Shown: positions 2,285 through 19,924 of the stretch, one piece after another
Layout: each line of letters opens with the position of its first letter
Numbering within the stretch: the first letter of the stretch is position 1
From: a virus
Direction: 5' to 3' (one strand)
DNA: 64,000 nt
Virus record (IMG/VR): IMGVR_UViG_3300034198_017033
Location: 32,445 to 96,444 of that record
Notes under the pieces: model-generated
The model's database searches: none
Told to the model about the DNA's origin: nothing
What the model saw: only the letters and a program-made list of their open reading frames with translations
Program-made: the position numbers and the translations under genes

Positions 2285-2715
2285 TGAAAAAAATATTATT
2301 TATATTACTTTTGTCTATCACATCTTATGGGCAAATAAAGATTGACGATGTTGGAACTGGTTGGAAAGTTAAAGTTGAACAAGCTTTACTAATCATTCAG
2401 AACAACGATACCGAAGCTTATGATATGGTTAAAAAACATTGTAAAAAAATAAGTTATATACTTAGCACATTCTCAACAACACAAAATGGTGATACAGTAC
2501 TCATAACAACAAACGATATGAATAGCGTTTCAATAAATAATATAGCTGCTGTAATCGTACATGAATCTTTTCATCTTAAAGCATTACATGATAATTATGG
2601 GTTAACAGAACTAGAAGAAGAATCTAGAGCTTATGAAGTGGAATTGAAATTCCTAGAAAAGATACCTAACGTGGAACCATGGTTAATCAATAACGCAAAA
2701 AATAAAAAGGGCTAA
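2284..2715 (+). CDS. small secreted protein with an HExxH motif (possible mini-zincin)
   Basis: Signal peptide MKKILFILLLSITSYGQ. VIVHESFHLKALHD contains HESFH. Followed by an intrinsic terminator. Confidence 0.45.
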   Translation: MKKILFILLLSITSYGQIKIDDVGTGWKVKVEQALLIIQNNDTEAYDMVKKHCKKISYILSTFSTTQNGDTVLITTNDMNSVSINNIAAVIVHESFHLKALHDNYGLTELEEESRAYEVELKFLEKIPNVEPWLINNAKNKKG

Positions 2716-2731
2716 ATGTAGCCCTTTTTTA
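2705..2731 (+). terminator. rho-independent terminator hairpin (gggctaaatgtagccc followed by T-tract)
   Basis: Perfect stem plus TTTTTT, at the convergence of the plus-strand operon and the minus-strand genes. Confidence 0.6.
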
Positions 2732-3233
2732 TTAAATCATGTAAGTATTCAGAGTGTTCTATGTTTTTTTCGTTAGCATAACCAATACTCATGTGCATTC
2801 CAAAGAATGGTTTCCCTAAACCCAATTCAGTTCTTATGGATTGTAATGATTCTCTCTCTTCATGAGGAACGTTAAACCACCATGTTCTACCATCAGTCCT
2901 AGGGTCCAAATCAATAACGATAGGTATAGTTTTACCATGCCATTTTTGTTTTGTTATATCCCACGCATTTAGAGCCTCTTCAACGGACTTTTGTCCATTC
3001 TGGGTTAAATCCCTCATGCTGTCGTTAATAAACGAAATATGAGCCCCTCTAAGCGGTTTATTTAGTGTTAGATTGTATCTTCTTTTTATGAACCAATTGT
3101 AGTATTCGCATATCTCTCCATCTACCATAACCATGGCTATTTTTTTCCATGACGCTTGATTTAAGTGTTTTTTTGTTTTGTCCTCAGGTTCAAACTCAAT
3201 CTTACCTGTAAGGTGTAATATTTTGGTTTCCAT
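2712..3233 (-). CDS. hypothetical protein
   Basis: 173-aa ORF with no recognisable motif. Confidence 0.45.
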   Translation of the reverse strand: METKILHLTGKIEFEPEDKTKKHLNQASWKKIAMVMVDGEICEYYNWFIKRRYNLTLNKPLRGAHISFINDSMRDLTQNGQKSVEEALNAWDITKQKWHGKTIPIVIDLDPRTDGRTWWFNVPHEERESLQSIRTELGLGKPFFGMHMSIGYANEKNIEHSEYLHDLIKKGYI

Positions 3234-3660
3234 TTATTGTTATTAAATCAGTAATAATCTCTCTATCAATTTCGTTTCCATTTATAGCTATTAAATCGTT
3301 AATAATCTCTCTATCAATTTCGTTTGAAATTTCTTGTGATAACATATTAATTAGTTCAGCCTCAGCATCTATATGATGAAAAGCATGCAAGTCATCAGAC
3401 ATTTCAACAGTCCAAAATGGTTTTTTATACGCTGAACCAAACTCTTTTTTTTGCAACCCATTTGAAAACGACCATTTTCTAAATATTTTTTCACATTCTA
3501 AAATATCAAAATCAAAAACAACATGACATTCTATAACGATGTCTTGACCATATTCTAACTGAGTTGTGTTAACATGATAAAATTTGTTATTACAAACTAC
3601 ATAATGTTTATTTAAATATTTGTCTAGTATTTTTTTAATCTCAATGGGTTTCATACACAA
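3202..3660 (-). CDS. hypothetical protein with an internal tandem repeat
   Basis: ORF. About 39 nt are directly repeated at 3240-3320 (peptide repeat EIDREIINDLIAINGN / EIDREIITDLITINGN). Confidence 0.4.
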   Translation of the reverse strand: MCMKPIEIKKILDKYLNKHYVVCNNKFYHVNTTQLEYGQDIVIECHVVFDFDILECEKIFRKWSFSNGLQKKEFGSAYKKPFWTVEMSDDLHAFHHIDAEAELINMLSQEISNEIDREIINDLIAINGNEIDREIITDLITINGNQNITPYR

Positions 3661-3691
3661 TTATATGAAACCCAAGGAAATTAGTAAAGGT

Positions 3692-4450
3692 TTAAGCCAA
3701 CCTAAGTGGTTTTAAAAACTCTCTCAAGAAAGCGTTTTTAGGACCTCCAATCTTTTCAACCCATTTTTGGTAGTTGGATTCATTTCTTTCTTCCAATTCA
3801 AGTTGAGCTTTTTTGGACGGCTTACGAGTACCATAAGGTAACTTTTCTTCTTGGAACTCTGGGTAAAGTTCTCTATTGAAAACTCTCTCGTCAACCAAGA
3901 ACACAACTGCTGTTAACTGGTCCCCTAAGTCTGGTTCATGGAAAACAGCTGTAGCGACACCATTATCAGTAAGTGTTCTTAAATGTTGGTTAAGACTTCC
4001 TAACTTATCTGGTGTATTGTTAGTAGTACCACCATTAAGGATAATAAAAGTTTTATCTTCTTTGGCCCATTTATTATAAATCTTCTCTAAATTAGATAGA
4101 CCTTTAACTGTTTGACCGTACTCAACCACAGCATGACCAAATTGGATACCTTGTTGAATTGGACTTATATTGTAAGGAACCAGACCATACATTCTGTATT
4201 CCAAATACATTTCAGTTTTTCTTGGCATCGAGTTAGCTTTTACCTTGCATTGTGACAACGCTTCAAGGAATTCACCTTTAGGCATTGTAGGAAACATAAA
4301 ATAATGCATCTCCTTTGAACCGAACCACTCTAGTGGCCATTCGTTTAGGTCTAAGACCCTTATGTTAAGTTCTAAACACCATTGATAAGGTGTTTTAAAT
4401 TCTAATTCTTCCATTAGTGTTCCATTTGTATTAAGTGAGAAATTGTACAT
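3692..4450 (-). CDS. PTH2-like (peptidyl-tRNA hydrolase 2 family) domain protein with an N-terminal extension
   Basis: GIQFGHAVV resembles the PTH2 AAQCSHAAV motif. HEPDLGDQLTAVVF resembles the PTH2 DAGRTQIAPGTVT region. Paralog of 30435-30785. Confidence 0.4.
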   Translation of the reverse strand: MYNFSLNTNGTLMEELEFKTPYQWCLELNIRVLDLNEWPLEWFGSKEMHYFMFPTMPKGEFLEALSQCKVKANSMPRKTEMYLEYRMYGLVPYNISPIQQGIQFGHAVVEYGQTVKGLSNLEKIYNKWAKEDKTFIILNGGTTNNTPDKLGSLNQHLRTLTDNGVATAVFHEPDLGDQLTAVVFLVDERVFNRELYPEFQEEKLPYGTRKPSKKAQLELEERNESNYQKWVEKIGGPKNAFLREFLKPLRLA

Positions 4451-5703
4451 TGTACTGGATTGTAGATAATGAACTCGTCATTTCTAAGGTCAGCACCACC
4501 ATGAGCGTATACGCTATCAAAACCATCCTTTTGGATGTTAGAGTAACTCAAACTATAACATGATGAATCATGTTTGTGAATGTGTTTCTCGTTTCCTAAA
4601 TGTACATCGAACAATGCCAAGAAACCTACTTGAGAGTTACCTCTAGTCCAATGTGAACCTGATAGTGAACTATACCCCAATGATTTTTGACTCTTGTTAG
4701 CGAAATACACACCATCACCGAACATAGAACCAGTGTAAACAGCACCAGAAGGTCTAATCATAAGACCAGTCTGGATAATGTTAAACCAGTTCTCGTTTCG
4801 AGAACCATGCCAGTAAAGTCTTTTCTTTTTAACTTTAGCTGTTTTAAAATGGTTATCAAATTTGGCTTGTGTGGCAATATTAACAACTTTGAAAATCTTT
4901 TTGGCTTTTGACGAATTATCACCCAATAATTTGGTGATAAGGCTAAGTGTTTCGCTATCTTTCTCAACTTCAATCTTAAGACCCATTTGAGTAAGGATGT
5001 CAATATCTGACATTTCTTCACCAGTGGTTTCAATAGTTTGTTTTTGTTGTTTGATAAGTTTAACCTGACCAGCCATGGTATCCAGCGCACTTTGTTCTTC
5101 ACCCAACAATCTTTGAGCTTTTTCCAATTCGTCATCGTTATCAAGACCTTGAACCAAGTGATTTTTAACGTTATCCATTTTTCTAGGAATAACGGTAAAA
5201 AGTCTTAACAATTCGTTGTTCACTTCTTTAAGGTCACCACCAACTTTAAGCATAGCTGTAACTTTAGACAAAACCTCTTGTGCTGCTTCAACTTGTTGTT
5301 CAGAAACAGCGTCTTGAGTAACTTTATAATTCTTTTGAATAGATTTATTTGCGTATGCCATAAGGTCTTGAACTAATTTCTTAACCATAGCATCTTTTAT
5401 CGCTTCAACAGTGTTGTTTTGTGAACCACCGTTTGAATTATCAACTACTGGTTCTGCTAATAACTCTGTTACATCAGTGTAACCTTTACTAGCACCAGTC
5501 TTTTGTTTGTAAACACTACTCCATTTAGAACTATCTTTATACTCAGTAGTGAGACTTTTACCAACTCTACCGTATTCACATTTGATTCTACCGTCAGCAA
5601 GCTCTTCCATTATATAGACTTTGTTGCTATTATCTGTTTTTCCGTTATCAACCGATACGTGAATTAATTTAGCGTATTTTAAGCCGTTTTCTTTAGTTAT
5701 CAT
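4414..5703 (-). CDS. poly(ADP-ribose) polymerase-like protein (WGR domain plus PARP catalytic domain)
   Basis: WGR motif IKCEYGRVGKS. Catalytic signature LYWHGSRNENWFNIIQTGL...GDGVYFA (H-G-S), and NDEFIIYNP supplies the Y and E of the H-Y-E triad. Confidence 0.75.
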   Translation of the reverse strand: MITKENGLKYAKLIHVSVDNGKTDNSNKVYIMEELADGRIKCEYGRVGKSLTTEYKDSSKWSSVYKQKTGASKGYTDVTELLAEPVVDNSNGGSQNNTVEAIKDAMVKKLVQDLMAYANKSIQKNYKVTQDAVSEQQVEAAQEVLSKVTAMLKVGGDLKEVNNELLRLFTVIPRKMDNVKNHLVQGLDNDDELEKAQRLLGEEQSALDTMAGQVKLIKQQKQTIETTGEEMSDIDILTQMGLKIEVEKDSETLSLITKLLGDNSSKAKKIFKVVNIATQAKFDNHFKTAKVKKKRLYWHGSRNENWFNIIQTGLMIRPSGAVYTGSMFGDGVYFANKSQKSLGYSSLSGSHWTRGNSQVGFLALFDVHLGNEKHIHKHDSSCYSLSYSNIQKDGFDSVYAHGGADLRNDEFIIYNPVQCTISHLIQMEH

Positions 5704-5720
5704 ACTTCTACATTTATTTT

Positions 5721-5733
5721 TGCAAAGATATTA
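5721..5733 (-). promoter_or_regulatory. Bacteroidetes-type -7 promoter element (minus-strand TATCTTTGCA) for the PARP gene
   Basis: tgcaaagatatta lies about 20 nt upstream of the ATG at 5703. The same motif recurs before most genes. Confidence 0.55.
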
Positions 5734-5755
5734 AATCTTTTTTATACTTCCAAAT

Positions 5756-5962
5756 TTATTTCCATTTTTTTGTCACGTCTTCCAAAATACTTTGGTTTTC
5801 ATTGACAAAACGTAAGAATAATGGTTGTAGTTCTGGTTGTAATGGAAACCCATTAATATAAACCACATCCATCACAACTTCAAGTTCTTGACCAGCTTTA
5901 AGTGGCATATCTCTAGCCACTTCAACATTTTTGGTCAATCTGTATACTTTATTGGTAATCAT
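5756..5962 (-). CDS. hypothetical protein
   Basis: 68-aa ORF. Confidence 0.35.
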   Translation of the reverse strand: MITNKVYRLTKNVEVARDMPLKAGQELEVVMDVVYINGFPLQPELQPLFLRFVNENQSILEDVTKKWK

Positions 5963-6399
5963 TATACACCAAGAGATTTTCTGATTTCTTCAAGCTCCAT
6001 TTGTGCTCTAAGCTCTGGGCTGATTAATTTGTTAAGACGTTCCTCAAGCATTTCCAACTCTTTTTTCTTGGTTGTAATCTCGATTTTGTCGATTCTTGTT
6101 TTGATGTCTTCGGCCCAATCATCAAAGGTAAAACCAAACCACTTAAATTCTAGGTTTGTACCGATGATTTTTTGTGCTTCGTTAAACGCGTTACGTTTCT
6201 CACACAAGAAACCTAAAATATAAACCAATTCTTCTACCGCACTACATACTTGTAGGTTGATACTAGCTGAGGAATCTTTGCTGTATCTGAAAGCACAGTT
6301 AGTGTTCCAGTTAGGTCTTTCAGCCTTAGCGATGGCTGCTTTTTTCTCGTTAACAATCTTGGTTAACTCTTGTACTAATTTGTCGTTGTTTGCACTCAT
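5962..6399 (-). CDS. hypothetical coiled-coil protein
   Basis: 145-aa ORF. Confidence 0.45.
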   Translation of the reverse strand: MSANNDKLVQELTKIVNEKKAAIAKAERPNWNTNCAFRYSKDSSASINLQVCSAVEELVYILGFLCEKRNAFNEAQKIIGTNLEFKWFGFTFDDWAEDIKTRIDKIEITTKKKELEMLEERLNKLISPELRAQMELEEIRKSLGV

Positions 6400-6401
6400 A
6401 A

Positions 6402-7742
6402 TTAAAATACTAATACTCTATTTTTGTTATTTTTATTTATCGTAACTAATTTTAATTTCATATCCTTAATAGTTTGATATGAAATCTTTTCAATTAACTT
6501 TGGTTTGATTGTTTTCAATTTAATCTCACCGTCTTTAACCGTAACAACTTTTTTAGCTGTTAACTTGTATGTCTTAATCTTATTTTTACTATTTCTATTA
6601 TAATAGTAACTAGCGTTAGAGTATTCAACTTCGTCCGTTTCTAAAGCATACTGTTCGTATTGGTTATTACCCAATGGTAAATAACAATACCCATAATCTT
6701 CATGCGAATGGTGAGAATATGTTAATTCTGTTGGTATAAAAGCATCGATTTCTTCAAGGTTATCAATAATACCACTAAATTTTGATTTATTAAATTCATC
6801 CAACAATTCAGCGTAGTTTGAAACTGGTGTGTCATTTGTTTTAATTGCAAATTTAGCTAAACTAGTAAACGATTCAATTCTTTCACCATAATTAGGTTTT
6901 TGAACTTTATAAAACACCTGTCTTTTCCCACAACTAACTTTGTCGTATCTATCATGACTATATCTGTAATGTTCATCAAACCAGTTGAATTTACCCAAAT
7001 AGATGTATTCTTCCATTTGTTTTGTTTTGTAAGTACAACCCTCAACCAAATCCTTAACCCCGATTTTTTGTGATTGCATTTCAGTAAACTTCTGTGATTC
7101 TTGATAATCAAGACTGGTTGTTGGTAACAACACTAAATCCTTACCATCCCAAGCATACACAAAAGCCCCTTCTAGACCTTTTCCTTTCATCGCGTTACAC
7201 TCTTGAAGAATAAACAACAAATTAGGAACACTGATTTCAAACTCGAAACCTCTCGGGTCGTACACACGACAATAAGTTGACCTATGGTCCCAACCGTTAG
7301 AGTAACCACCAACTTTTTTGTTTAATACAAAACCTTCTGTTGGTACGTTGTCAAATTCAATTGGTTTAAGTGATTCGTCAGAAGAAACTCTACCAAGACT
7401 AGGTGTGAATTTATCATAAGAACCAACAAATTTATCAACATATTCTTCCTCAGTCATATCAGCATATTGCTTATACCAATTATTTTTATTTTTTGAAGAT
7501 TCTTGAACATAATAAGCATGGTCTTTTTTAGACTTAGCCACACGGTCATTGTATTGCTCTCTACGTTTTTGCTGATACGTATCATCATCCATGTGGTGAT
7601 ACCTCCAACCTTCCCATGAAGGTTCTTTACGCCATTTTTTACCGTCAAAGCCGATAACATAACCCAATTTTCCACTATAAGTATCGGTTCTTGGGTTAAA
7701 ACCAACCTTAACTTTTTCTGCAATAAATAATTTTGAATTCAT
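6402..7742 (-). CDS. hypothetical protein
   Basis: 446-aa ORF. Confidence 0.5.
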   Translation of the reverse strand: MNSKLFIAEKVKVGFNPRTDTYSGKLGYVIGFDGKKWRKEPSWEGWRYHHMDDDTYQQKRREQYNDRVAKSKKDHAYYVQESSKNKNNWYKQYADMTEEEYVDKFVGSYDKFTPSLGRVSSDESLKPIEFDNVPTEGFVLNKKVGGYSNGWDHRSTYCRVYDPRGFEFEISVPNLLFILQECNAMKGKGLEGAFVYAWDGKDLVLLPTTSLDYQESQKFTEMQSQKIGVKDLVEGCTYKTKQMEEYIYLGKFNWFDEHYRYSHDRYDKVSCGKRQVFYKVQKPNYGERIESFTSLAKFAIKTNDTPVSNYAELLDEFNKSKFSGIIDNLEEIDAFIPTELTYSHHSHEDYGYCYLPLGNNQYEQYALETDEVEYSNASYYYNRNSKNKIKTYKLTAKKVVTVKDGEIKLKTIKPKLIEKISYQTIKDMKLKLVTINKNNKNRVLVF

Positions 7743-7836
7743 CCGTTTTTTTTATTATTAATATACGTTATTTTATATAAAAATAAAGAGTTTTCACTAA
7801 AAAAAATTAACTTTTTTCAGCTACTAACTCTTTGAT

Positions 7837-8889
7837 TTACACCAACTTAAAGAACATATCTCTAACCTTAGAAGAGATGTATTTGTTCACATCTTTTGGT
7901 TCGATTTTGTTATCAGTCATGGTGTCCATTTCCTCTTTGATTACGTCGTTTACAACCCAACGAATTACATCACCCAATTTTTTGTTTTCAATTGGTTCTT
8001 CGTTAGGGAATACATTTTCAAGTGCTTGATTGAAACGACTTTCAGTTACTGCGTATTCAACAAAGCTTTGGATTGATTCCAATTTTTCAGTGTCTACAGC
8101 TGCAAGTGTTTTAACCTTTGAACTAGAGTGGCGTTCGCCCTTCACCTTGAAGCGGTGTACGTTTCCGTTAAGCGTTGTTGACCAAACAATACCTTCACCG
8201 ATTCCAGAGAACCCAAAAGCCTTAGCAACTGGACATTCTTCTTCAACAGCTAGTGTAAGTTCTGACAATTTGTTTTGAACCAATTGTGGCATGTTAAAGT
8301 CAATATCGATTTCCCAAGTTTGGAAATCTTCGATATTGTAAATGTTATCCTCAGGACTTTTCAAAAAGTGTGAAGGAATCCAATAAGCTGGTTTTTGTCT
8401 AGCTTCTTCTTCAGTTTCAGTAATCGGAGTTACTTTAACACCAAAGATAAAGAATGATTTTGGTAGATTTGAAATACCAACACCCTTCTGAATGTTACCA
8501 CCAGCCCATTCACCATAAATCGTAACGATGTTATGACGGACATCAAACATCCCCAACGAATCAATTTGACTAGCAAATTTTTTAAACGCTTCTTTATGTG
8601 ATTCAACAAAGAAAGCAAAACCAGCATTGTCTTTTTCTGGTGTGATAATGTTTTCACGAGATTGTACCCAATACTCACTAGTGTTATCATAACCGTATTT
8701 GAAAGAAACACCAGCATTGGTTCCGTGAAGTTTCACAGTGCCCTTGAAGGTAAGCGTTGGTTTTGGTTTTGTGGTGTCGTAAATCGCATCACCATTCTCA
8801 TCAAGACCAACAAAATTATATTTTCTAAGAACAGTAGCTACAACGCTTCTGAATTGTTCGATAGACGGAAATTTAATCATTTTTTTCAT
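7837..8889 (-). CDS. RNA ligase 2 (T4 Rnl2-like)
   Basis: Motif I VKLHGTN (compare T4 Rnl2 KIHGTN). IYGEWAGGNIQKGV matches Rnl2 FGEFAGPGIQKNV. EGIVW is motif IV. Confidence 0.75.
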   Translation of the reverse strand: MKKMIKFPSIEQFRSVVATVLRKYNFVGLDENGDAIYDTTKPKPTLTFKGTVKLHGTNAGVSFKYGYDNTSEYWVQSRENIITPEKDNAGFAFFVESHKEAFKKFASQIDSLGMFDVRHNIVTIYGEWAGGNIQKGVGISNLPKSFFIFGVKVTPITETEEEARQKPAYWIPSHFLKSPEDNIYNIEDFQTWEIDIDFNMPQLVQNKLSELTLAVEEECPVAKAFGFSGIGEGIVWSTTLNGNVHRFKVKGERHSSSKVKTLAAVDTEKLESIQSFVEYAVTESRFNQALENVFPNEEPIENKKLGDVIRWVVNDVIKEEMDTMTDNKIEPKDVNKYISSKVRDMFFKLV

Positions 8890-8918: not shown

Positions 8919-8950
8919 AAAAAAGGGTGTTATTACACACCCATTTTTGT
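8919..8950 (-). terminator. intrinsic terminator hairpin (gggtgt..acaccc plus T-tract)
   Basis: Lies downstream of the stop of 8971-9447. Confidence 0.5.
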
Positions 8951-9551: not shown

Positions 9552-10952
9552 TTATGATAAACCTAACGCAGCATTTTGAATTTCAATACACTCATCTAAA
9601 GAATTAGCCTCACTCTTATCATCTCTAAAGTGTTTAAACGCTGGATATAACAATGAATAAGCACCTGTGTTATCAAATGAAAGACCAGAACACTTAACCT
9701 CAATAATTGTACCTAACAAATTATCTTGGTTTTTAGTAATTTCTTTCATTAAGTCTTCTTTTAACCCTTGTGGTCTAGTTTTTAATTTACCACATGATGT
9801 TTCGGCGTTCAATGAACTAACAACGTTTTCGTTTTTAGTTCCTTTGGTTCCGTAGTTGAATCCAGTAATAACCAAATCTAACGTTAATTCCAATTTAAGC
9901 TTAATTTGCCATGTTGGTTTACCATCTTTCCACTCACCATCCCACGCTTTAAGGATTGTACCTTCTTCACCTAACGCTAACACTTCTTTGAAGTGATTCA
10001 TAGCTTGCTTATAGTTATGAACAATCATACTCTCAATCAAATTAACACATGTAGAACCAGCATCTTGAATCACTTTTTCTAGTGTTGCTAAACGCTCAAC
10101 ATATTTAAGTTTTGATGATTTGTTGAAGTATTCATCTACGGTTAATCGGTCCCATACTGTGTAACGGATTTTATCTAACGCTTCTTCCAACGAACCATGT
10201 TTGTCATTGAACGCTTTTAATTTCTTTTCGTTCTCTTTTTCAGTTCTAGAGTCTTTTTTACCTAAGATGTCGATAAGAGAAGCTATGATACCGTTAGACT
10301 CATATCTAGGTGTATCAACCATTGTTAACTCACCATTAAGTACACAGTCTTCAAACGATTCTAATTCTTCTAAAAATTTAGCACCAGTAAGTGTTGTTGG
10401 TTCACCTTGGCGTGATTCCATTTCAACTTCACCATTTCGGATAACGGCATTACAGTAACGGCCATCCATTTTAATTTGTGAAAAACCCTTAGCACCTTTT
10501 TCGAAGATTTTACGAGCTTTCTTCTCATCAAAAGAAACAGCACCCATATAAGGTGTGTCTTCAATAAGGTCTTTGAATACTTTGTTCATAAATGTGGTAC
10601 CCATACCAATTTTACAATCTTTCTCAATTATACGTTCTACGATATAAGCATCATCAGCTGTCATATGTGATAAAATATCTTTTAATAATAAAGTAGCATA
10701 AGAACCAGTAGTAACTCTTAATGATAAACCATCTAATCTACCTAATTGACCTATAAAATCAATACCTTCTGGATATTCTAAAATAGGTGTATATTCAGGG
10801 ATTCTTTTGATATAAAATTTAACTCTTTTAGAGTTAGCCATATAAAGAACTTTTTTCAATAGTTCGTTGTCTTGGTACTTTCTAAGAATTTCAATCTTAG
10901 CGTTGTTACCGCTTTCAGCAGCAATCTCATCAAAAATTTGTTTGATTGTCAT
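9552..10952 (-). CDS. ATP-dependent DNA ligase (T4 gp30-like)
   Basis: N-terminus MTIKQIFDEIAAESGNNAKIEILRKYQDNELLKKV parallels T4 ligase. Motif I is IKMDGRY (KxDGxR). EGTILKAWDG is motif IV-like. Confidence 0.8.
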   Translation of the reverse strand: MTIKQIFDEIAAESGNNAKIEILRKYQDNELLKKVLYMANSKRVKFYIKRIPEYTPILEYPEGIDFIGQLGRLDGLSLRVTTGSYATLLLKDILSHMTADDAYIVERIIEKDCKIGMGTTFMNKVFKDLIEDTPYMGAVSFDEKKARKIFEKGAKGFSQIKMDGRYCNAVIRNGEVEMESRQGEPTTLTGAKFLEELESFEDCVLNGELTMVDTPRYESNGIIASLIDILGKKDSRTEKENEKKLKAFNDKHGSLEEALDKIRYTVWDRLTVDEYFNKSSKLKYVERLATLEKVIQDAGSTCVNLIESMIVHNYKQAMNHFKEVLALGEEGTILKAWDGEWKDGKPTWQIKLKLELTLDLVITGFNYGTKGTKNENVVSSLNAETSCGKLKTRPQGLKEDLMKEITKNQDNLLGTIIEVKCSGLSFDNTGAYSLLYPAFKHFRDDKSEANSLDECIEIQNAALGLS

Positions 10953-10953
10953 A

Positions 10954-11265
10954 TTAATTATTTAGAATTATTGAGTCACCTACTTTTTTGTTAAGGTATA
11001 ACTCATGTGTTATTGTATAAACGTCTTCACCTTTTTTGGTTTTGATAACCATCTTGTCATCGGGTAATTTTTTGGTCACAAGACCATGTGTTGGTTGTGT
11101 TGGTTCTTTAGTGGCCATGTAGTATACACCAATAATCAACCCTATTAAAAGAATTGTCATTATTAGACACCCAATACCATTTTTTTTGTTGTTTGAGATT
11201 GAAGCGGCTTCAAACCCAACTTCAGCTACCCCCGCTATCAATTCACCAATTATTTCACCTGCCAT
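10954..11265 (-). CDS. small membrane protein
   Basis: Hydrophobic segments. Promoter motif at 11283-11297. Confidence 0.4.
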   Translation of the reverse strand: MAGEIIGELIAGVAEVGFEAASISNNKKNGIGCLIMTILLIGLIIGVYYMATKEPTQPTHGLVTKKLPDDKMVIKTKKGEDVYTITHELYLNKKVGDSIILNN

Positions 11266-11282
11266 AATGTTTTTGTTTTAGA

Positions 11283-11297
11283 TTGCAAATATACTAC
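11283..11297 (-). promoter_or_regulatory. -7 promoter element (ttgcaaatatactac)
   Basis: Consensus motif 21 nt upstream of the ATG at 11265. Confidence 0.5.
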
Positions 11298-11303
11298 TTA
11301 TTT

Positions 11304-11807
11304 TTAATCCTCCAAACTTTTTCCCAATAATTTTTCTAAGTGTTCCCACATTGGTTTGGCAGCGATTGGTGTGTTTAAGTACAAAGCACCTTTGAACTCC
11401 GCGTATTCCTTGGCATACATGTCAATTTTACCACCATGTTCAATGTTTGCGATTCTATCAGCCAACTTAAGAATAATTGCATCTGGATTGCTAGCAGTTT
11501 TAGGTAAAGTTTTCTCTTTTTTCTCTTTTCTGTTTCTCCCAAGCTCATCAGTAACACAGAAAACCATTTCAGCAACTTCAATACCGAAGTGTTTCTTTAT
11601 GTCGTTGTAGCTTATACCATCGTCCTCGATTGCATCATGCAACCAAGATGCCACGATGTATTTCCCAGAGTATCCAAATCTTTTGATTACATCCACAACG
11701 TCTTGTAAGTGTTTGTGGTATGGGAATATTTCATCATAGGATTGGTTGCTATGCGCTTTTATAGCAACCAATTTTGCTTCTTCGTAAGTTTTGTCTGTAT
11801 AAGTCAT
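11304..11807 (-). CDS. HD-domain (p)ppGpp hydrolase (SpoT/Mesh1-like small alarmone hydrolase)
   Basis: ASWLHDAIEDDG resembles the RelA/SpoT HD motif LHDVIEDT. ILKLADRIANIE resembles LADRLHNM. Confidence 0.6.
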   Translation of the reverse strand: MTYTDKTYEEAKLVAIKAHSNQSYDEIFPYHKHLQDVVDVIKRFGYSGKYIVASWLHDAIEDDGISYNDIKKHFGIEVAEMVFCVTDELGRNRKEKKEKTLPKTASNPDAIILKLADRIANIEHGGKIDMYAKEYAEFKGALYLNTPIAAKPMWEHLEKLLGKSLED

Positions 11808-11979
11808 TATCTTGCAATTAAAAGGTATTTACGTTTGTTTTCTTTTTGTTTTGGTAATTCAATTTCGGAACAAGGATTTTTAGATACCCTATCAAAATCA
11901 ATCAAAGTCTCAATATCATAATGAGGAATATAATGGTAAATCGACTTTATACCTTCATAGTTATTTTCTTTTTCCATTT

Positions 11980-12321
11980 TTATCGTATTAAAAGGTATTT
12001 ATTTTTGTTTTTTGGTACTTCTTTTTTTACATCTCCAGTGGTGTCACGTTCAGAACCGTATCGTTCAAACTTATGTGGCACGTATTTACCGTTACATAGT
12101 CTCCATTCTTTTTCAGATATTGAAAGCAATGGTTTATCATCTAACGATTTAATATCCCTACAATATGCTCGTAAAATACCTTCTGAGTCTCTATAACAAT
12201 CAACACCCCATTGACCGCCATCTCTGTAATATTTATATTTTCCACCATCGTAGATTAAACGTAACGCACAATTACCATCAACAGTTACGAATTGTGGATA
12301 TAAAGGTGTTATTTTTGCCAT
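11980..12321 (-). CDS. hypothetical protein
   Basis: 113-aa ORF. Confidence 0.4.
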   Translation of the reverse strand: MAKITPLYPQFVTVDGNCALRLIYDGGKYKYYRDGGQWGVDCYRDSEGILRAYCRDIKSLDDKPLLSISEKEWRLCNGKYVPHKFERYGSERDTTGDVKKEVPKNKNKYLLIR

Positions 12322-12331
12322 TATAAACTAA

Positions 12332-12973
12332 TTAAATGTTATCTTTATTTGTTTTTAATATAAACCTACCTTTATCGTTTCTAACGCTTTTAAGGCAGTT
12401 TCTATAATCTTGTTTTACTGTTTTTAAATCTTTATTTCTTCTATCACCATTTACTATTTTAGATATTGTTTGATGTGCAACACCGTACATTTCCCCAATT
12501 TGTACTTGAGTGTAGTTTTTGGTTTTATATAATTCTCTAATTTCTTCTACCTCTGAATCTTTTAGTTTAAAGGAAGGGTTTTTTTCACCATATTGGTCTA
12601 TCACGTTACCGAGAACTTCTCTAGAATGCTTGGATTGTTCTTTATATGTTGCTAGTTCTAAATTTGATAATTTGTTATTAGTTTTATCACCATCTTTATG
12701 GTTTATTGTTAAACCATCGTTTATATCACCGTTAAAATATTGCCAAACTAATCTATGTGCAAAACTACTATATCTTTTTCCATTAACAGAACCTCTTATA
12801 CTTAAATAACCTTCCTTGGTCTTTCTCTCAATTCTGTATGGTTCTACTTCATAAAACCCAGCACCAACCCTTTTAATTTTAGACCATATTTCACCACTAT
12901 CATTAATAGTCCATTCACCAGAATTAACGTATTCTATTAATAAACGTTCATTTAGTTTATGATTTTTTGCCAT
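12332..12973 (-). CDS. HNH homing endonuclease with a C-terminal HTH
   Basis: HRLVWQ...NHKDGDKTNNKLSNLE is the HNH_3 pattern. The C-terminal stretch QIGEMYGVAHQTISKIV resembles a helix-turn-helix. Confidence 0.65.
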   Translation of the reverse strand: MAKNHKLNERLLIEYVNSGEWTINDSGEIWSKIKRVGAGFYEVEPYRIERKTKEGYLSIRGSVNGKRYSSFAHRLVWQYFNGDINDGLTINHKDGDKTNNKLSNLELATYKEQSKHSREVLGNVIDQYGEKNPSFKLKDSEVEEIRELYKTKNYTQVQIGEMYGVAHQTISKIVNGDRRNKDLKTVKQDYRNCLKSVRNDKGRFILKTNKDNI

Positions 12974-13011
12974 TTTTTTATTTTTAAAGGTTAAGCTCTA
13001 ACCCCAAAGAG

Positions 13012-14136
13012 TTAGAGCATTTTGTATAATAATTTGTCATCGTAGTTTACAATGAAGTCTTCTACGGAACCAACTTTACCATCAACCAATCCGAAATACA
13101 ATCCAGTGAATTGTTTTAAGTCGTGTTTACCACAAACTTCAAATACAGCCGCAGCGTATCTTTTCTTTTCTTCTTTGGTTATGTTTTTTGGTTTACGAGC
13201 ACTTAACTCAACCCAAACATCATTTAACTTGTCAGTTAATTTATCGTAGTTATCTTTAAGTCTAAGCAATTCATCTTTTCTTTCTGGGAAAGTTGAAGCG
13301 AATTCTTCTATCTCGTTAGATTTAACGATAGTTATGATGTTGTGTTCAGCTGTTTTACCTTTCAAGTGGTGAACCGCAACGTAAGCTGGGTTTTTTATCT
13401 TGATACGGTTAAAATTAGCGTCTACAACAACGTAACCTTCTTCTGACCATGGCATACCTTCAAATGTACGTAACAAAGTACCCACATCTTTAGCATTCAA
13501 GTCAAATCTTTTAACCAATGGTACTCTTAACGATTCTGCAATCATAGTTAAGTTTTTCCAAGAAACCTCTTGTAATGTAACACGGTTTCTAACAGTCAAC
13601 AAAGTTGCTGATGATTCTCCGTGTGGTTTTACAACAATATTATATGGAGTTGTTAACTCAAACACATATACATGGTTTTTGTCGAACATACATGTATTCA
13701 ACGCATATTGTTTTGTTACAGTGTCCCAAAACAATGAGTTAAAAGTAGTTCCCATTTTGTTGTTAACTTCACCCTCACCCTCAGCTGTACCAGTAGTACC
13801 AGCATACCATTCTTCGTTTACCCAGTCCCAATACACTTGTATAAGAGTACCGTCAAGTTTCTCTAAAACGTGAGCTGTGTTCCAATCTATTTTAGCAGCG
13901 TTTCCTTCTTCAGCATTGAAGAATTTTGTGAAAGCCAACGACATAACATCCCATGTACCTTTTTCAAGGATAAGACCTCTACATTCTTGAACTTCTATGT
14001 TCGACATAATAGTTGGTGACACTAATTGGTCATATTTCAATAACACTTTGTGTTCGTATTCACGAGTTTTTAATTGAAACTCTTTAACAGCTTTTTCAAA
14101 ACCGTTTTCTTTTATAAATTTTTGTATTTTTAACAT
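13012..14136 (-). CDS. RNA ligase 1 (T4 RnlA-like)
   Basis: ECRGLILE matches T4 Rnl1 ECRGIMFE. Nucleotidyl-transferase motif I is EKLDGTLIQVY. EGYVVVDANFNRIKIK matches Rnl1 EGYVAVMKDGSHFKIK. Confidence 0.75.
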   Translation of the reverse strand: MLKIQKFIKENGFEKAVKEFQLKTREYEHKVLLKYDQLVSPTIMSNIEVQECRGLILEKGTWDVMSLAFTKFFNAEEGNAAKIDWNTAHVLEKLDGTLIQVYWDWVNEEWYAGTTGTAEGEGEVNNKMGTTFNSLFWDTVTKQYALNTCMFDKNHVYVFELTTPYNIVVKPHGESSATLLTVRNRVTLQEVSWKNLTMIAESLRVPLVKRFDLNAKDVGTLLRTFEGMPWSEEGYVVVDANFNRIKIKNPAYVAVHHLKGKTAEHNIITIVKSNEIEEFASTFPERKDELLRLKDNYDKLTDKLNDVWVELSARKPKNITKEEKKRYAAAVFEVCGKHDLKQFTGLYFGLVDGKVGSVEDFIVNYDDKLLYKML

Positions 14137-14149
14137 AACATGTATTTTT

Positions 14150-14165
14150 TGTGCAAATATATGTG
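14150..14165 (-). promoter_or_regulatory. -7 promoter element (tgtgcaaatatatgtg) for the Rnl1 gene
   Basis: Consensus motif upstream of the ATG at 14136. Confidence 0.5.
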
Positions 14166-14196
14166 TTTATTTTAATGCACAAAATATTTGCGTTAA

Positions 14197-14583
14197 TTAA
14201 TCATTATCATCGTCATCATCTTGGTCAAAATTGATTTCATCCTCATCATCCAATTTACCTCTCTTAGCATCATCAATTAAACCATCAATCCCATCTAAGA
14301 TGTTTTCATAAGTGTCAGCTTCAGCTTTTCTTCTGATAGCCATAATTTCAGGGTCATTGTTTTCTTCTAAAGATTCAACCAATTTTTTTGCTGAATACAT
14401 AGAAACCAATTCACCAAATTTTGTGACATCTTCATCATCAAAACAAATCCCACCTAAAAAGATTATCATACTACCCAACTGAGCGATAATTAAATCATTG
14501 GATTCTCTACCCTCTTCAACTAGAGCTTTACCCATCTGTACAAATTTTGACGTTAGTTGAAGACGTCTTTCAGCATTTTTCAT
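14197..14583 (-). CDS. hypothetical protein with a strongly acidic C-terminal tail
   Basis: Start MKNAERRL sits just downstream of the promoter motif at 14593-14608. The tail is DDEDEINFDQDDDDDND. Confidence 0.5.
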   Translation of the reverse strand: MKNAERRLQLTSKFVQMGKALVEEGRESNDLIIAQLGSMIIFLGGICFDDEDVTKFGELVSMYSAKKLVESLEENNDPEIMAIRRKAEADTYENILDGIDGLIDDAKRGKLDDEDEINFDQDDDDDND

Positions 14584-14592
14584 ATTTATAAG

Positions 14593-14608
14593 TTTTTGCA
14601 AATATACT
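14593..14608 (-). promoter_or_regulatory. -7 promoter element (ttgcaaatatactaat)
   Basis: Consensus motif 15 nt upstream of the ATG at 14583. Confidence 0.55.
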
Positions 14609-14629
14609 AATTAATTTCTATTGTTACAA

Positions 14630-15268
14630 CTATTTTGTATAATAATGATGTGGTAATTGAACACCAACCCCATATTTTTTACCAATAGCTTCCAAACCAA
14701 TTATAAAGTCATTGTCAAAATCCCACAAAAATTCATCGTAATCTATATCAAAATAAACAACATAAGAAGTTTTACCAGTAAAACCATACTGTTTATAAAG
14801 ATGGTCAACGTTAAAAGTCATCCCCAACAGCTTATTATTAGCAGCATACTCTTTAACTTCGTTAGTTAAACTATCCAAATCAACATCCAATTGATAATCA
14901 ACACCCAAATCCGTAAGTGATTCAGACACCATTTGATTGTATCTACCGAAGCTTCCGTTAATTAGAACTTCCATAGCCACCCATTTAACTACATGTGGTT
15001 CGTTATGGTTTATTTCACCAGAATACTTAGCCAAATAAGTGTAACCCATGTTACCATTTTTATGGATAGCAAAAACTAATTGTAAATTAAAAATATCCAA
15101 ACCAGTTTCTTCTTTACATTCTCTTATTGCCGTTGTTGTAGGGTCATTGTCGTCTTCTGGGTCCATCTTACCTCCAGGTAATCCGAAATCAGAATGGTTG
15201 TCTTTTCTAGACACTCCAAGAATTAAACCTTCTTCGTTAATTAATACTACTTGCGCTGTTATCATAAT
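14630..15268 (-). CDS. NUDIX hydrolase
   Basis: Nudix box GGKMDPEDDNDPTTTAIRECKEETGL. Start MITAQVV sits just downstream of the promoter motif at 15277-15290. Confidence 0.7.
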   Translation of the reverse strand: MMITAQVVLINEEGLILGVSRKDNHSDFGLPGGKMDPEDDNDPTTTAIRECKEETGLDIFNLQLVFAIHKNGNMGYTYLAKYSGEINHNEPHVVKWVAMEVLINGSFGRYNQMVSESLTDLGVDYQLDVDLDSLTNEVKEYAANNKLLGMTFNVDHLYKQYGFTGKTSYVVYFDIDYDEFLWDFDNDFIIGLEAIGKKYGVGVQLPHHYYTK

Positions 15269-15312
15269 ATATTTTTTACAAAGATACAACATATTTTTAT
15301 TATATGCAAATA

Positions 15313-15337
15313 AAAAAGGGTCTTTACGACCCTTTCT
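15313..15337 (-). terminator. hairpin terminator (gggtc tttac gaccc) overlapping the stop of 15324-16262
   Basis: Stem-loop flanked by A and T runs. Confidence 0.45.
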
Positions 15338-16262
15338 TAATTTCAGTAACTCTACCCTTAATGGCAAAGTTCTTTATTTTTTGCCATTTGGTGATATCAT
15401 TCGACATCACTGGTTTTCCACCATCTGGGTTTATCGCAATTGTTATATGTGGAATCGCATTGGTTGATGGATAACCTTCAACCCTAACAGCCATAGCCAT
15501 ATCGCTAATCCCTATAGCTTCAACATACAAAGTAACTTCTTTACCTAAATCTTCTTGGTTTGGTACTGGTTTACCAAACACTATAGTCATGTGGTGCGCA
15601 ATTACTTTCCAACCATCAGGTATCATACCCTCAATTCTTGACAACAAAGCTGCTCTAGACCCACCATCCAATACAACAGCAGAATACAAAATGTTTGATT
15701 CTTTGTACATGTCTTTCGATTCTAAAACGCTTTTAAGCGTTAATGGACCTTGACCCTTGTGTGATTCAATCATTGATTGTATTTTTTCAAGCGGTACACC
15801 ATGAGTGTTTCTTTCAGCTAATTGCTCAGCTGTAAGACCAGCTGTACCTATATCCACAAACTTTATGTTGTTGTCAGCCAACCCCATTTCCAAAGCAGCC
15901 TTAATAGCGGCCTTTGATTCGTTTTGTTTGATGTTTGTGTTATCTAGGATAACTGGTGAAACACCTTCTTTTAACGAACCAACAACGTTTTTTAAATTGG
16001 TAGAGTGAGCTCTTGACAATGGTGTAAAGTCTTTAGATTCAAACATTAATTGAAAGAATTTGTTGTAATCACCTTGTGACTCTATAACAGCATCAGTTGA
16101 ATGGATTACTCCTTCACCTACTAGTTCTTTGGCTTTTGTTGATTTACCCGAGCCTGGTATACCACGCATCACGATAAGCACTTGGTCTGGTCTTGAAACC
16201 GCAACCCCTAATGAATTCTTTAACATACCTTCTCTTAATATTGTTCTTATTTCTTTTTTCAT
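15324..16262 (-). CDS. polynucleotide 5'-kinase fused to a 2H (LigT/CPDase-like) phosphoesterase domain
   Basis: P-loop VMRGIPGSGKST as in the T4 Pnk kinase domain. The C-terminal half carries two H-x-T-x motifs (HMTIVF and HITIAI) typical of the 2H superfamily. N-terminal motif MKKEIRTILREG. Confidence 0.7.
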   Translation of the reverse strand: MKKEIRTILREGMLKNSLGVAVSRPDQVLIVMRGIPGSGKSTKAKELVGEGVIHSTDAVIESQGDYNKFFQLMFESKDFTPLSRAHSTNLKNVVGSLKEGVSPVILDNTNIKQNESKAAIKAALEMGLADNNIKFVDIGTAGLTAEQLAERNTHGVPLEKIQSMIESHKGQGPLTLKSVLESKDMYKESNILYSAVVLDGGSRAALLSRIEGMIPDGWKVIAHHMTIVFGKPVPNQEDLGKEVTLYVEAIGISDMAMAVRVEGYPSTNAIPHITIAINPDGGKPVMSNDITKWQKIKNFAIKGRVTEIKKGS

Positions 16263-17819: not shown

Positions 17820-17906
17820 TGGTGGAGAGTATGGGATTCGAACCCATGGGCCGAACTAACGACCACGGATTAGCAATCCGCTCCATTACCACTCTGGCAA
17901 CTCTCC
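17820..17906 (-). tRNA. tRNA-Ser (anticodon GCT), class II, CCA encoded
   Basis: Acceptor GGAGAGT/ACTCTCC. Anticodon loop TTGCTAA. T-arm GGTTCGAATCC. Long variable arm. Confidence 0.8.
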
Positions 17907-18110
17907 ATAAATAAAATAACAATCCCGCCCTTGGGTCGTGACGGGCTACAAAGGGATTAGTGGAATTCCGTGTGTAAGTCACCACTGTACCAGTCCGTAT
18001 CTACCTTGAATTTAATCAGTCACTGTTGGGAGGCTACCCCTATCAACACACCTAGTTTCTTTTCAGGAATATCTTGAAGGTGAAACAAACCTTGATTGCT
18101 ATTTTATTTG

Positions 18111-18183
18111 TACCCCCACAGGGATTCGAACCCCGATTGGACATCTTAGAAGGATGTTGCATTTCCATTTATGCTATGGAGGC
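18111..18183 (-). tRNA. tRNA-Arg (anticodon TCT)
   Basis: Acceptor GCCTCCA/TGGGGGT. Anticodon stem ACATC/GATGT with loop CTTCTAA. T-loop TTCGAAT. Confidence 0.7.
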
Positions 18184-18232
18184 ATATTGTTAGCCAAATG
18201 ATACATATAAATTATAGATTTGACTGATGTTG

Positions 18233-18305
18233 TGACTCTAACAGGATTCGAACCTGTATTTTCGATTTCGTAGACCGAGGTCCTATCCAGTTGAACGATA
18301 GAGCC
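18233..18305 (-). tRNA. tRNA-Arg (anticodon ACG)
   Basis: Acceptor GGCTCTA/TAGAGTC. Anticodon stem TCGGT/ATCGA with loop CTACGAA. T-arm ACAGG-TTCGAAT-CCTGT. Confidence 0.75.
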
Positions 18306-18310
18306 AATTT

Positions 18311-18383
18311 TGGTACCGAGTATCGGAGTCGAACCGACTTGACCATCTTTATGAGGGATGGCTCTTTTCCTATAAGCCTCGGC
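18311..18383 (-). tRNA. tRNA, probably anticodon CAT (Met/Ile2 type), CCA encoded; the fold is imperfect
   Basis: T-arm GTCGG-TTCGACT-CCGAT. The anticodon region CATCC-CTCATAA-AGATG has a C-A mismatch at the loop-closing pair. Confidence 0.5.
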
Positions 18384-18650
18384 ATTTGTGAATGTGGTAG
18401 GGTATTCTCCTACAATTGTGGTGGTTAACTAGTCCCATGCTCCACGCCAGTTTTTCGTCTGGTGCTGTTGTAGTTTATCAGCATTAACACATTCTTATTT
18501 TTTTGTTCTTTTCAATTTGTGCTTTGATTCTAGCAATCTTTTCTGGACTTGGATTTCGGTCTACCGTATAAGATACACCCATTTTATCCAAGTAATCATA
18601 AAGACGCTGCATATCAGCTTCACTTGTCTTTTCCATCTTCTTTTATTTTG

Positions 18651-18724
18651 CGGGGCCGATGGGATTCGAACCCATGTAAAAGGATTAACAGTCCTCCGTA
18701 TTAGACCGCTGCTACGACAGCCCC
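18651..18724 (-). tRNA. tRNA-Asn (anticodon GTT)
   Basis: Acceptor GGGGCTG/CGGCCCC. Discriminator G. Anticodon stem-loop GAGGA-CTGTTAA-TCCTT. Confidence 0.75.
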
Positions 18725-19266
18725 TTGTTATTTCTTTCTTCTTCGTGTACTTCTCTGTGACAATTAGCACAAACTAAAATACATTTATCTAATTCTTTTT
18801 TTATTTTTTCCCAAGATGTACAATGACCTTTTCTGCTTATTAAAAAATCTTTTTCATTTGGGTCCATATGGTGAAACTCTAAAGCACCTATGTATTTATT
18901 ATAACCACATCTCTGACATGAACCGCCTTTGTATTCAACTGCCATCTCTTTGACTTTTTGTCTTCTTTTTACAACGGCTTTAACAGCTTTTTCTTTCCTC
19001 TCTTCTTCGCTTAAATAGACTCTTTTATTTTCAGTATATTTAGTTACAGTTGAAGCTCCAATCCCGAAATGTTTAGCTGTTTCAGCTTTACTATGAGTTA
19101 AATAATACTCATTAATTTTAGAAATTAAACTGTCAGTTATAACCTTACCACCTAAACCATTATTGTTAATGTGATATGATACGGTGCTTTTAGCACAACC
19201 CAATTCTTTAACAATTTCATCAATTTTTAAACCTTTTTTTCTTAATTCTAATATTTTTTCTTTCAT
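18712..19266 (-). CDS. HNH endonuclease with an N-terminal HTH (homing-endonuclease-like), inserted in the tRNA array
   Basis: HNH motif CQRCGY...EFHHMDP...LVCANCHREVH. N-terminal HTH IDEIVKELGCAKSTVSYHI. Confidence 0.6.
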   Translation of the reverse strand: MKEKILELRKKGLKIDEIVKELGCAKSTVSYHINNNGLGGKVITDSLISKINEYYLTHSKAETAKHFGIGASTVTKYTENKRVYLSEEERKEKAVKAVVKRRQKVKEMAVEYKGGSCQRCGYNKYIGALEFHHMDPNEKDFLISRKGHCTSWEKIKKELDKCILVCANCHREVHEEERNNKGLS

Positions 19267-19832: not shown

Positions 19833-19834
19833 AG

Positions 19835-19918: not shown

Positions 19919-19924
19919 GTTTGT

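Follow-up and report, generated by a model that had tools for sequence, protein, structure and literature searches.

Within a 64,000-nucleotide stretch of the IMG/VR virus record IMGVR_UViG_3300034198_017033 (positions 32,445 to 96,444 of the record; hereafter the window), a gene on the minus strand at 4414..5703 encodes a genuine enzyme that belongs to the family of poly(ADP-ribose) polymerases (PARPs), with the minimal architecture of the PARP2/3 type, in which a WGR domain is followed by a helical domain and an ADP-ribosyltransferase (ART) domain. The reading that we favour, at a probability of roughly 0.55, is that the protein acts in a phage repair module as an ADP-ribosyltransferase activated by nucleic-acid breaks. 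This model is the best supported one because the protein combines residues of the break-binding kind with a regulatory domain and a transferase site, and because its gene has ligase and end-healing genes for neighbours.

Catalytic, WGR and helical domains

The open reading frame (ORF) begins at the same methionine in all close homologs, which align with it at 100% coverage. Pfam profile PF00644 matches the protein with 89.5 bits (cut-off 26.7; E = 2.7e-25) over residues 253-428, corresponding to profile positions 4-198 of 199, and it also matches every one of the 32 homologs tested; PHROG 23333 covers residues 16-428. In a phmmer search against PDB, residues 104/127-382 align with a PARP1 fragment that comprises the helical and catalytic parts (E = 2e-17), the next matches being PARP2, PARP3 and PARP4. 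Hidden Markov model (HMM) alignment pairs the triad H299, Y333 and E410 (codons 4807-4809, 4705-4707 and 4474-4476, respectively) with H862, Y896 and E988 of PARP1, and the NAD+-site residues G300, K340, S341 and Y344 with G863, K903, S904 and Y907. The aligned strings in the phage protein and in PARP1 read WHGSR/WHGSR, GVYFAN/GIYFAD and LRNDEFIIY/LLYNEYIVY, and all of the triad and NAD+-site residues listed are invariant among the 32 homologs (63-91% identity). A chance match is thereby ruled out, the feature lying far beyond chance; the protein is a real enzyme and probably an active one.

The first-pass annotation, made from the letters of the window, had described a phage-encoded WGR-PARP with a complete H-Y-E triad, citing the motifs EYGRVGKS, HGS, GVYFA and NDEFIIYNP; all are located in the protein, the first at residues 43-50 and the others within YWHGSR, GDGVYFA and RNDEFIIYNP. 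The PF00644 match, the alignment of the triad and NAD+ site to PARP1 and the family profile described below bear this description out, and the positional conservation of the catalytic glutamate, to which that annotation had attached particular weight, holds at the level of sequence alignment, with E410 falling on E988 of PARP1 and invariant in the 32 homologs. Its deduction from the triad that the enzyme makes poly- rather than mono-ADP-ribose does not follow: PARP3 and PARP4 carry H-Y-E yet are listed as mono-ADP-ribosyltransferases (PDB names; PMC12377720), so that polymer synthesis requires the triad but is not guaranteed by it, and the phage enzyme may make either polymers or single ADP-ribose units.

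The N-terminal half is far more divergent. On the PARP protein itself the Pfam profiles WGR and PARP_reg gave no match even at E <= 10, and phmmer of residues 1-95 against PDB gave none either; among the members of the clade, Pfam WGR matched 0 of 32 and PARP_reg just two of 32, weakly. Single-sequence searches being negative, detection of the WGR domain needed a family profile. Built from N-terminal sequences of 16 diverse phage PARPs, among them the window's own, this profile matches the WGR domain of PARP3 (2eoc) in PDB with E = 5.5e-7 and that of PARP2 with E = 4e-5. Moreover, the homolog of Cellulophaga phage phi17:2 passes Pfam WGR and that of Klebsiella phage FBKp34 passes both WGR and PARP_reg, and the window's PARP can be aligned with the phage PARPs that pass Pfam WGR from residue 6-24 through the C-terminus. 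An AlphaFold2 (AF2) model shows an N-terminal domain of four strands and a helix, with a predicted local distance difference test (pLDDT) score of ~56-86 and a minimum at residues 18-25, followed by a five-helix domain (helices 98-125, 135-154, 158-171, 176-182 and 190-227). The top Foldseek matches of this model are WGR-HD-CAT chains of PARP1 (8g0h, 4dqy) and PARP2 (7aeo), aligned over ~495 columns with E about 1e-17. Because the homologs, the AF2 and Foldseek results and the family profile agree, we assign both a WGR and a helical domain to the protein, the former genuine but divergent. The HMM searches suggested in the first-pass annotation thus succeeded for PF00644 and failed for Pfam WGR and PARP_reg, and its WGR motif survives as a domain but not in its letters, since the window's PARP reads YGR where several relatives have a true WGR; in bacterial PARPs, too, the first position of the motif is most often Tyr (PMC5966428).

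Nine columns of the WGR domain, N27, K28, Y30, G45, R46, K68, K73, G74 and Y75, are invariant among the 16 diverse phage PARPs. In the alignment to PARP2, N27, K28 and Y30 fall on N129 (of the N127-N129 run), K130 and Y132, and G45, R46 and K68 on G152, R153 and K183; we infer that Y75 may correspond to Y201. In PARP2, mutants of R153, K183 and N127 showed no measurable binding, Y132F bound about three-fold more weakly, and K130A was still activated (PMC6294510).

Proposed break activation, gene neighbourhood and rival roles

The proposed mechanism combines these elements. In the eukaryotic enzymes the helical domain blocks the active site, which opens once the WGR domain has bound a break. 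In the phage, the WGR domain would recognize nicked or broken, 5'-phosphorylated phage DNA, possibly also RNA, during infection, and this binding would switch the PARP on. With NAD+ as donor, the active enzyme would then ADP-ribosylate its own chain, proteins in the vicinity or the nucleic-acid end, and the ADP-ribose would mark or protect breaks, which the phage ligases would then seal. We infer break-dependent activation from the conserved PARP2 DNA-contact positions; the targets and the link to repair are likewise proposals. There are precedents: in PARP2 the WGR domain mediates activation by 5'-phosphorylated ends (PMC8190142), DNA ends are themselves modified by PARP2 and PARP3 (PMC5725667, PMC8385414), and the WGR-PARP of Herpetosiphon is active with activated DNA (PMC5966428).

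The invariance of the transferase site and of the WGR contact residues favours a regulated transferase over a simple NADase. A protein that merely drains NAD+ or serves as a decoy against host NAD+-dependent defences, or one that is catalytically irrelevant, in either case with no specific target, would hardly be expected to keep the transferase site and the nucleic-acid-contact residues of the WGR domain so strictly, and we consider this explanation very improbable, although phages are known to manipulate the NAD+ pool (PMC9503650) and a Nudix gene lies nearby.

The genomic setting provides the other line of support. Terminator-like hairpins were found on the minus strand at 8942-8925 and 2729-2704 alone, and they bracket eight genes, from that of an RNA ligase to that of a 173-aa protein (Table 1); no convincing terminator was found between the PARP gene and the PTH2-like gene downstream of it. 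The upstream genes of the unit (5756..8889) match PHROGs 548, 2475 and 2574. Farther upstream, end-healing and end-sealing genes form a dense cluster (9552-16262, minus strand), and together with the RNA ligase gene at 7837-8889 two RNA ligases and one DNA ligase are found within 7 kb. A block of ligase, Rnl and PARP is retained in about 55 related loci, and PARP and ligase genes are neighbours outside the window's own clade as well. For example, at locus L073 a 38%-identical PARP directly adjoins the ligase. In Cellulophaga phage phi17:2 (L001, 5268-9053) a 32%-identical PARP lies between a tRNA nucleotidyltransferase/poly(A) polymerase (CCA-adding) and a DNA ligase, the latter one gene beyond the PARP and 52% identical to the ligase of the window.

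Table 1. Features of the PARP gene, its transcription unit and the cluster upstream of it (positions in the window)
Feature	Position	Strand	Basis or remark
PARP-family ADP-ribosyltransferase gene	4414..5703	-	429 aa, ATG start, TAA stop at 4414-4416
WGR domain, residues 1-77, motif Y44-G45-R46	5473..5703	-	family profile, AF2 model
Helical (PARP regulatory / HD-like) domain, residues ~98-235	4999..5412	-	phmmer to PARP1 HD, AF2 model
ART catalytic domain, residues 243-429	4417..4977	-	Pfam match, PARP1 alignments
TAATG stop/start overlap, PARP / downstream gene	4412..4416	-	sequence; contig gene calls end-on-start
Downstream (PTH2-like) gene, 240 aa	3692..4414	-	N-terminal extension residues 1-67, PHROG 3668 'hydrolase' core ~68-240
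152-aa gene, co-directional	3202..3660	-	Pfam PF07068, E = 6.8e-12
173-aa gene, last of the PARP unit	2712..3233	-	PHROG 12204
Intrinsic-terminator-like hairpin, 11-bp stem and T run, end of unit	2704..2729	-	
68-aa gene, PARP unit	5756-5962	-	
145-aa gene, PARP unit	5962-6399	-	
446-aa gene, PARP unit	6402-7742	-	
RNA ligase gene, PARP unit	7837-8889	-	Pfam RNA_ligase, E = 1.9e-11
Terminator-like hairpin ahead of the RNA ligase gene, probable upstream limit of unit	8925..8942	-	
ATP-dependent DNA ligase	9552-10952	-	
HD_4 hydrolase	11304-11807	-	
HNH endonuclease (HNH-HTH homing type)	12332-12973	-	
T4 Rnl1-type RNA ligase	13012-14136	-	
Nudix enzyme	14630-15367	-	
Pnk-type kinase fused to fungal-tRNA-ligase-type cyclic phosphodiesterase	15324-16262	-	

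This setting bears on the possibility that the enzyme serves host takeover or anti-defence, modifying host RNA polymerase, translation factors or defence proteins in the manner of T4 Alt, ModA and ModB, with breaks playing no role and the WGR domain only localizing it. Comparative-genomic surveys have proposed such a role for phage PARPs (PMC7824862, PMC9503650), and distant phage PARPs have no repair genes for neighbours. However, the most conserved WGR residues align at or adjoining DNA contacts of PARP2, the regulatory helical domain has been kept, and in this clade as well as in the Cellulophaga phages the PARP gene sits among ligases and not among early or head-packaged effector genes, so that we regard a takeover function as unlikely.

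Alternatively, the enzyme could act chiefly on the terminal phosphates of DNA or RNA that has been broken, cleaved tRNA included, with ADP-ribose caps shielding the ends from host nucleases or passing them to ligases, and with the neighbouring Nudix, 2H-like and PTH2-like hydrolases processing or removing the cap. Phosphorylated DNA ends are indeed substrates of PARP2 and PARP3, and RNA 5'-phosphates are substrates of several PARPs and of TRPT1 (PMC5725667, PMC8385414, PMC8190142); the PARP gene is co-oriented with an RNA ligase gene inside the terminator-like boundaries and lies near the Pnk/cyclic phosphodiesterase (CPD), Nudix and Rnl1 genes and a tRNA array. This evidence is purely contextual, the sequence does not discriminate between protein and nucleic-acid acceptors, and the 2H role of the 173-aa gene is itself a candidate one; end modification as the principal activity therefore appears quite unlikely to us.

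Several points weigh against break activation as the function of the enzyme. The AF2 model of the PARP is of moderate confidence (pLDDT 65). Where PARP2 has a WGR-domain Trp stacking on the 5'-terminal ribose, the phage protein has Tyr, and the position of PARP2 Q159 is occupied by Thr. The stretch from residue 385 to E410 is ~22 residues shorter than its PARP1 counterpart, so the acceptor site may differ. The Pfam tables, which cover most of the window, contain no Macro, PARG or ARH domain, and a regulated, reversible signal is accordingly not evident. Unrelated neighbours surround the more distant phage PARPs (those of Xanthomonas phage XacN1, of Klebsiella phages 05F01 and FBKp34, and of IMG/VR loci at <= 49% identity), so that the association with a repair module may simply reflect inherited gene order. 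Finally, the literature searched holds no biochemical data on any phage PARP.

The two last genes of the PARP unit have features of their own. Residues 83-125 of the 152-aa protein form a 43-residue match to the T4 major capsid protein gp23. As a rule the gene follows the PTH2-like gene in related loci; it lies among repair genes and far from any structural module, and gives the impression of an orphaned fragment or domain of a capsid protein. The 173-aa protein, which hardly any locus of the clade lacks, gave no match in a Pfam scan or in a profile search against PDB; it has invariant histidines in two H-x-S/T motifs, AH65ISF and MH147MSIG, placed 82 residues apart, the distance characteristic of 2H phosphoesterases, which makes it a possible member of that group.

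The first-pass annotation had portrayed the genome as focused on tRNA and translation defence, and the region is indeed rich in tRNA and RNA-repair genes: apart from the RNA ligases and the Pnk/CPD fusion, 15 tRNA genes and an RF-1-domain protein are encoded on the same strand as the PARP. An array of 11 tRNA genes at 17820-20803 (minus strand) includes two tRNA-Asn(GUU) and two tRNA-Ile(GAU) genes, and an HTH-HNH endonuclease ORF (18712-19266, minus strand) is inserted between tRNA genes; at 85-87 nt, the calls at 19333-19419 and 19834-19918 have an uncommon length for Asn and Ile tRNAs and could contain introns or be miscalls. ARAGORN also reported a tRNA with a CUA anticodon (an amber suppressor, labelled tRNA-Pyl) at 30845-30918 (minus strand), and ~2 kb away from it, at 32749-33150 (minus strand), lies the gene of the RF-1 (peptidyl-tRNA hydrolase / release-factor) domain protein of 133 aa. 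The 60 minus-strand ORFs end in TAA (52), TAG (5) or TGA (3), and TAG may be read through or recoded at a late stage in this phage. Elsewhere, adjoining an RNase HII gene, a 484-aa protein (40152-41606, minus strand) carries DUF2828 and DUF7788 according to the Pfam table of a matching contig.

The PTH2-like gene and its linkage to the PARP gene

The first-pass annotation had reported that the 3' end of the PARP gene overlaps the start of a PTH2-like gene. An overlap on the same strand exists, but it amounts to a single base: the junction reads CAC-TAA-TGG, in which the stop codon of the PARP and the start codon of the next gene share one nucleotide. The longest ORF of the downstream gene (3692..4450, 252 aa) would overlap the PARP gene by 37 nt, which we regard as an artefact because nearly all homologs are 236-242 aa long and independent gene calls place the start at ATG 4414-4412. 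Co-expression of the two genes in this phage is plausible.

The downstream protein matches PHROG 3668 with E = 1e-18 and belongs to a hydrolase family of 957 representatives at 50% clustering. Residues ~68-240 of the protein correspond to the family core, residues 1-67 are a clade-specific extension, and Q91, H94, T122, G128, F158 and E160 are invariant. Four weak signals agree on its likeness to peptidyl-tRNA hydrolase 2 (PTH2). First, PF01981 is the commonest Pfam match among 98 relatives of the protein, though it is found in 3 of the 98 and with a best E of 0.0014. Second, the top Foldseek match of the AF2 model, a poor one (pLDDT 62, from a shallow alignment of 28 sequences), is the PTH2 of M. 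jannaschii (probability 0.77, TM 0.47). Third, hhalign of the family against a PTH2 profile of PDB-verified sequences, enlarged with archaeal and vertebrate members, gave a collinear alignment of ~100 columns (probability 15-21%, P = 0.001-0.002) and a score of 24.2, compared with 12.3 +/- 2.5 (maximum 21.2) in 150 column-permuted controls. Fourth, this alignment places the invariant Q and H of PTH2 on Q91 and H94, and the Asp of the DAG motif on the invariant E160; the Lys of the GKGK loop falls on Q87/Q88, a nearly invariant Gln. In the PTH2 of S. solfataricus, K18 and D86 are reportedly the catalytic residues, as Fromant and colleagues are said to have found in 2005.

Other searches were negative. 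Neither Pfam, NCBIfam nor phmmer against PDB sequences returned a match for the downstream protein, hmmsearch of the profile of 98 relatives against PDB found no PTH2, and a small PTH2 HMM reached E >= 0.06 at best against 270 family members. Since the protein stays below the PF01981 family threshold and does not keep the catalytic Lys of the GKGK loop, the Asp position being occupied by an acidic Glu, we do not file it as a member of PTH2; a PTH2-like fold nevertheless seems likely. The description as PTH2-like thus holds in the sense of these four agreeing signals, and fails as far as a Pfam, NCBIfam or PDB match and the catalytic Lys are concerned. The protein further differs from PTH2 (PF01981) in its own invariant LNGGTTN and EPDL motifs, in the 67-aa N-terminal extension and in a C-terminal helical extension of ~50 aa; the extra regions of ten longer family members contain no Pfam domain. 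PTH2 in jumbo phages is on record (PMC7824862). PADLOC defence-system models matched neither this protein nor the PARP.

To assess the linkage of the two genes, we used 80 IMG/VR loci with PARP relatives, 56 of which carry a complete PARP of at least 52% identity. The syntenic block in these 56 loci consists of DNA ligase, RNA ligase, the 68-aa gene, PARP, the PTH2-like gene, often the 152-aa gene, and the 173-aa gene. The PTH2-like gene begins within 5 nt downstream of the PARP stop in 18 of the 56, at 14-72 nt in two, at 190-550 nt in 21 and at 0.8-1.5 kb in five; it lies 4.6-7 kb upstream of the PARP in eight, is absent from one locus and is represented in another (L060) by a partial, overlapping match. 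By contrast, none of 22 loci with a PARP of <= 49% identity has the PTH2-like gene within 6 kb of it. In LR756500, the closest deposited phage (PARP 42.6% identical), the two genes are 20 kb apart, and among the matches listed this is the only record shared by the 80 phage records with the hydrolase family and the 16 with PARP. In Erwinia phage Hena1 the PTH2-like gene stands between a tRNA nucleotidyltransferase and another nucleotidyltransferase with no PARP nearby. The genes that follow PARP in the Cellulophaga (phi17:2) and Klebsiella FBKp34 phages have no sequence relation to the PTH2-like gene, and those in Klebsiella phage 05F01 and Xanthomonas phage XacN1 carry unrelated annotations. 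The order PARP then PTH2-like gene is thus conserved within one uncultured phage clade alone, and adjacency limited to a single syntenic clade is weak evidence for a functional pair.

These data bear most directly on the idea that the two proteins form a writer and an eraser, the translationally coupled PTH2-like protein hydrolysing ester-linked ADP-ribose made by the PARP. The acyl-ribose ester resembles the peptidyl-tRNA ester chemically, the genes share the TAATG overlap, and in about 46 of the 56 clade loci the PTH2-like gene follows PARP in the same orientation, 18 of them having no more than 5 nt between the two; E160, acidic at the position of the catalytic Asp of PTH2, and the replacement of the catalytic Lys by Gln suggest a changed substrate; and no classical eraser appears in the Pfam tables. 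Yet the hydrolase family is found in five times as many phage records as the PARP, the one shared genome among the matches listed keeps the genes far apart, the PTH2-like gene stands upstream in eight clade loci and is missing from the vicinity of the more distant PARPs, and in Hena1 it accompanies tRNA nucleotidyltransferases, with no PARP. We therefore hold an enzymatic pairing of this kind to be improbable. In its wider form, writer and eraser would work within an RNA/DNA-repair operon: the PARP would place ADP-ribose on broken nucleic-acid ends, or on proteins at tRNA-ribosome complexes that have stalled or been damaged, and a repurposed PTH2 fold would take ester-linked ADP-ribose off again. 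This form is in our estimate just as hard to credit; if true, it would add a new class of ADP-ribosyl hydrolases and connect PARP signalling with tRNA repair for the first time in viruses that infect bacteria. A specific partnership of the two genes is not supported beyond clade-level gene order, and the PTH2-like protein most likely serves tRNA or translation-rescue functions of the phage, independently of the PARP.

The phage, its relatives and known PARP systems

The window probably derives from an uncultured phage of Bacteroidota. This host is suggested by the low G+C content (26-38% across the region in 2-kb windows), by a type-IX-secretion sorting domain and by the Cellulophaga phages, which are the nearest cultured relatives. 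The phage is apparently large, with matching contigs reaching 300-370 kb. Plus-strand genes at 195-2715, which run towards the PARP unit, have products that look secreted and whose N-termini are hydrophobic; in matching contigs (locus L086, 2294-9064) the convergent genes carry Laminin_G_3/lectin domains, an unusual cargo for a phage, and a neighbour carries Por_Secre_tail (type IX secretion).

Megablast of positions 3000-7000 against 50,697 phage records found no near-identical phage genome. The statement of the first-pass annotation that PARPs are rare in phages applies to deposited records, 16 of which (among 50,697) contain the family, but not to metagenomes, where we found 3129 related proteins and 142 IMG/VR stretches, nor to the literature, in which phage PARPs had already been described (PMC4245714, PMC7824862, PMC9503650). 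The nearest deposited record is the uncultured huge phage LR756500 (42.6% identity), and a scan of 185,579 species genomes, limited to clade-specific patterns, returned one PARP match, at 30% identity, so that the clade was all but missing from these genomes. In Xanthomonas phage XacN1 (L083, 4971-6902) a gene with a von Willebrand factor type A (vWA) domain directly follows the PARP, a pair resembling the vWA domain fused to PARP4 in eukaryotes.

As an annotation, the PARP of the window is unsurprising, confirming and extending known catalogues. PARP genes were reported in Aeromonas phage Aeh1 and Cellulophaga phage phi4:1 in 2014 (Perina; PMC4245714), jumbo-phage PARPs were noted in 2021 and 2022, with PART/PARP among the most frequent viral ARTs (Iyer; PMC7824862, PMC9503650), and PARP in gut jumbo phages was noted in 2024 (PMC11662467). 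The window's PARP is therefore a divergent new member of an already catalogued phage family and not a new system. Its interest lies elsewhere: phage PARPs have figured in surveys since 2014, while the literature searched offers no biochemical characterization, and this clade, abundant in metagenomes, short (429 aa) and with an intact catalytic site, would be tractable for studying PARP-type break sensing in a bacterial virus. It could show whether break-activated ADP-ribosylation predates eukaryotes, and with genes for DNA and RNA ligases and end-healing enzymes consistently around it, the marking of nicks and the capping of nucleic-acid ends are two candidate roles.

Among known systems, human PARP2 and PARP3 (ARTD2/3) share with the phage protein the order of WGR, helical and ART domains, the H-Y-E triad and the NAD+-site residues. 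The WGR profile scores best on PARP3 and the catalytic part on PARP1 and PARP2, with Foldseek identities of 21-24% to PARP1 and 18-20% to PARP2. Unlike PARP2 and PARP3, the phage protein has no disordered N-terminal region and no context of chromatin, HPF1 or XRCC1. The bacterial WGR-PARPs of Herpetosiphon aurantiacus (HaPARP) and Clostridioides difficile CD160 (CdPARP) have the same WGR-(PARP_reg)-PARP_cat order, and many bacterial PARPs in which Pfam detects no PARP_reg nevertheless model as helical (PMC5966428); however, the bacteria that encode HaPARP and CdPARP also encode PARG, so that their turnover of poly(ADP-ribose) is complete, in contrast to the phage with its eraser-free Pfam tables. 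The PARPs of Cellulophaga phages phi4:1 and phi17:2 and of XacN1 (BBA65562.1) can be aligned with that of the window over 94-99% of their length at 25-32% identity and constitute a different clade. Finally, Alt, ModA and ModB of T4 are, like the phage PARP as proposed here, NAD+-dependent transferases that a phage uses in infection, but they belong to the R-S-E clade, lack WGR and regulatory domains and act as mono-transferases on host proteins (PMC9503650), whereas the enzyme of the window carries the H-Y-E triad.

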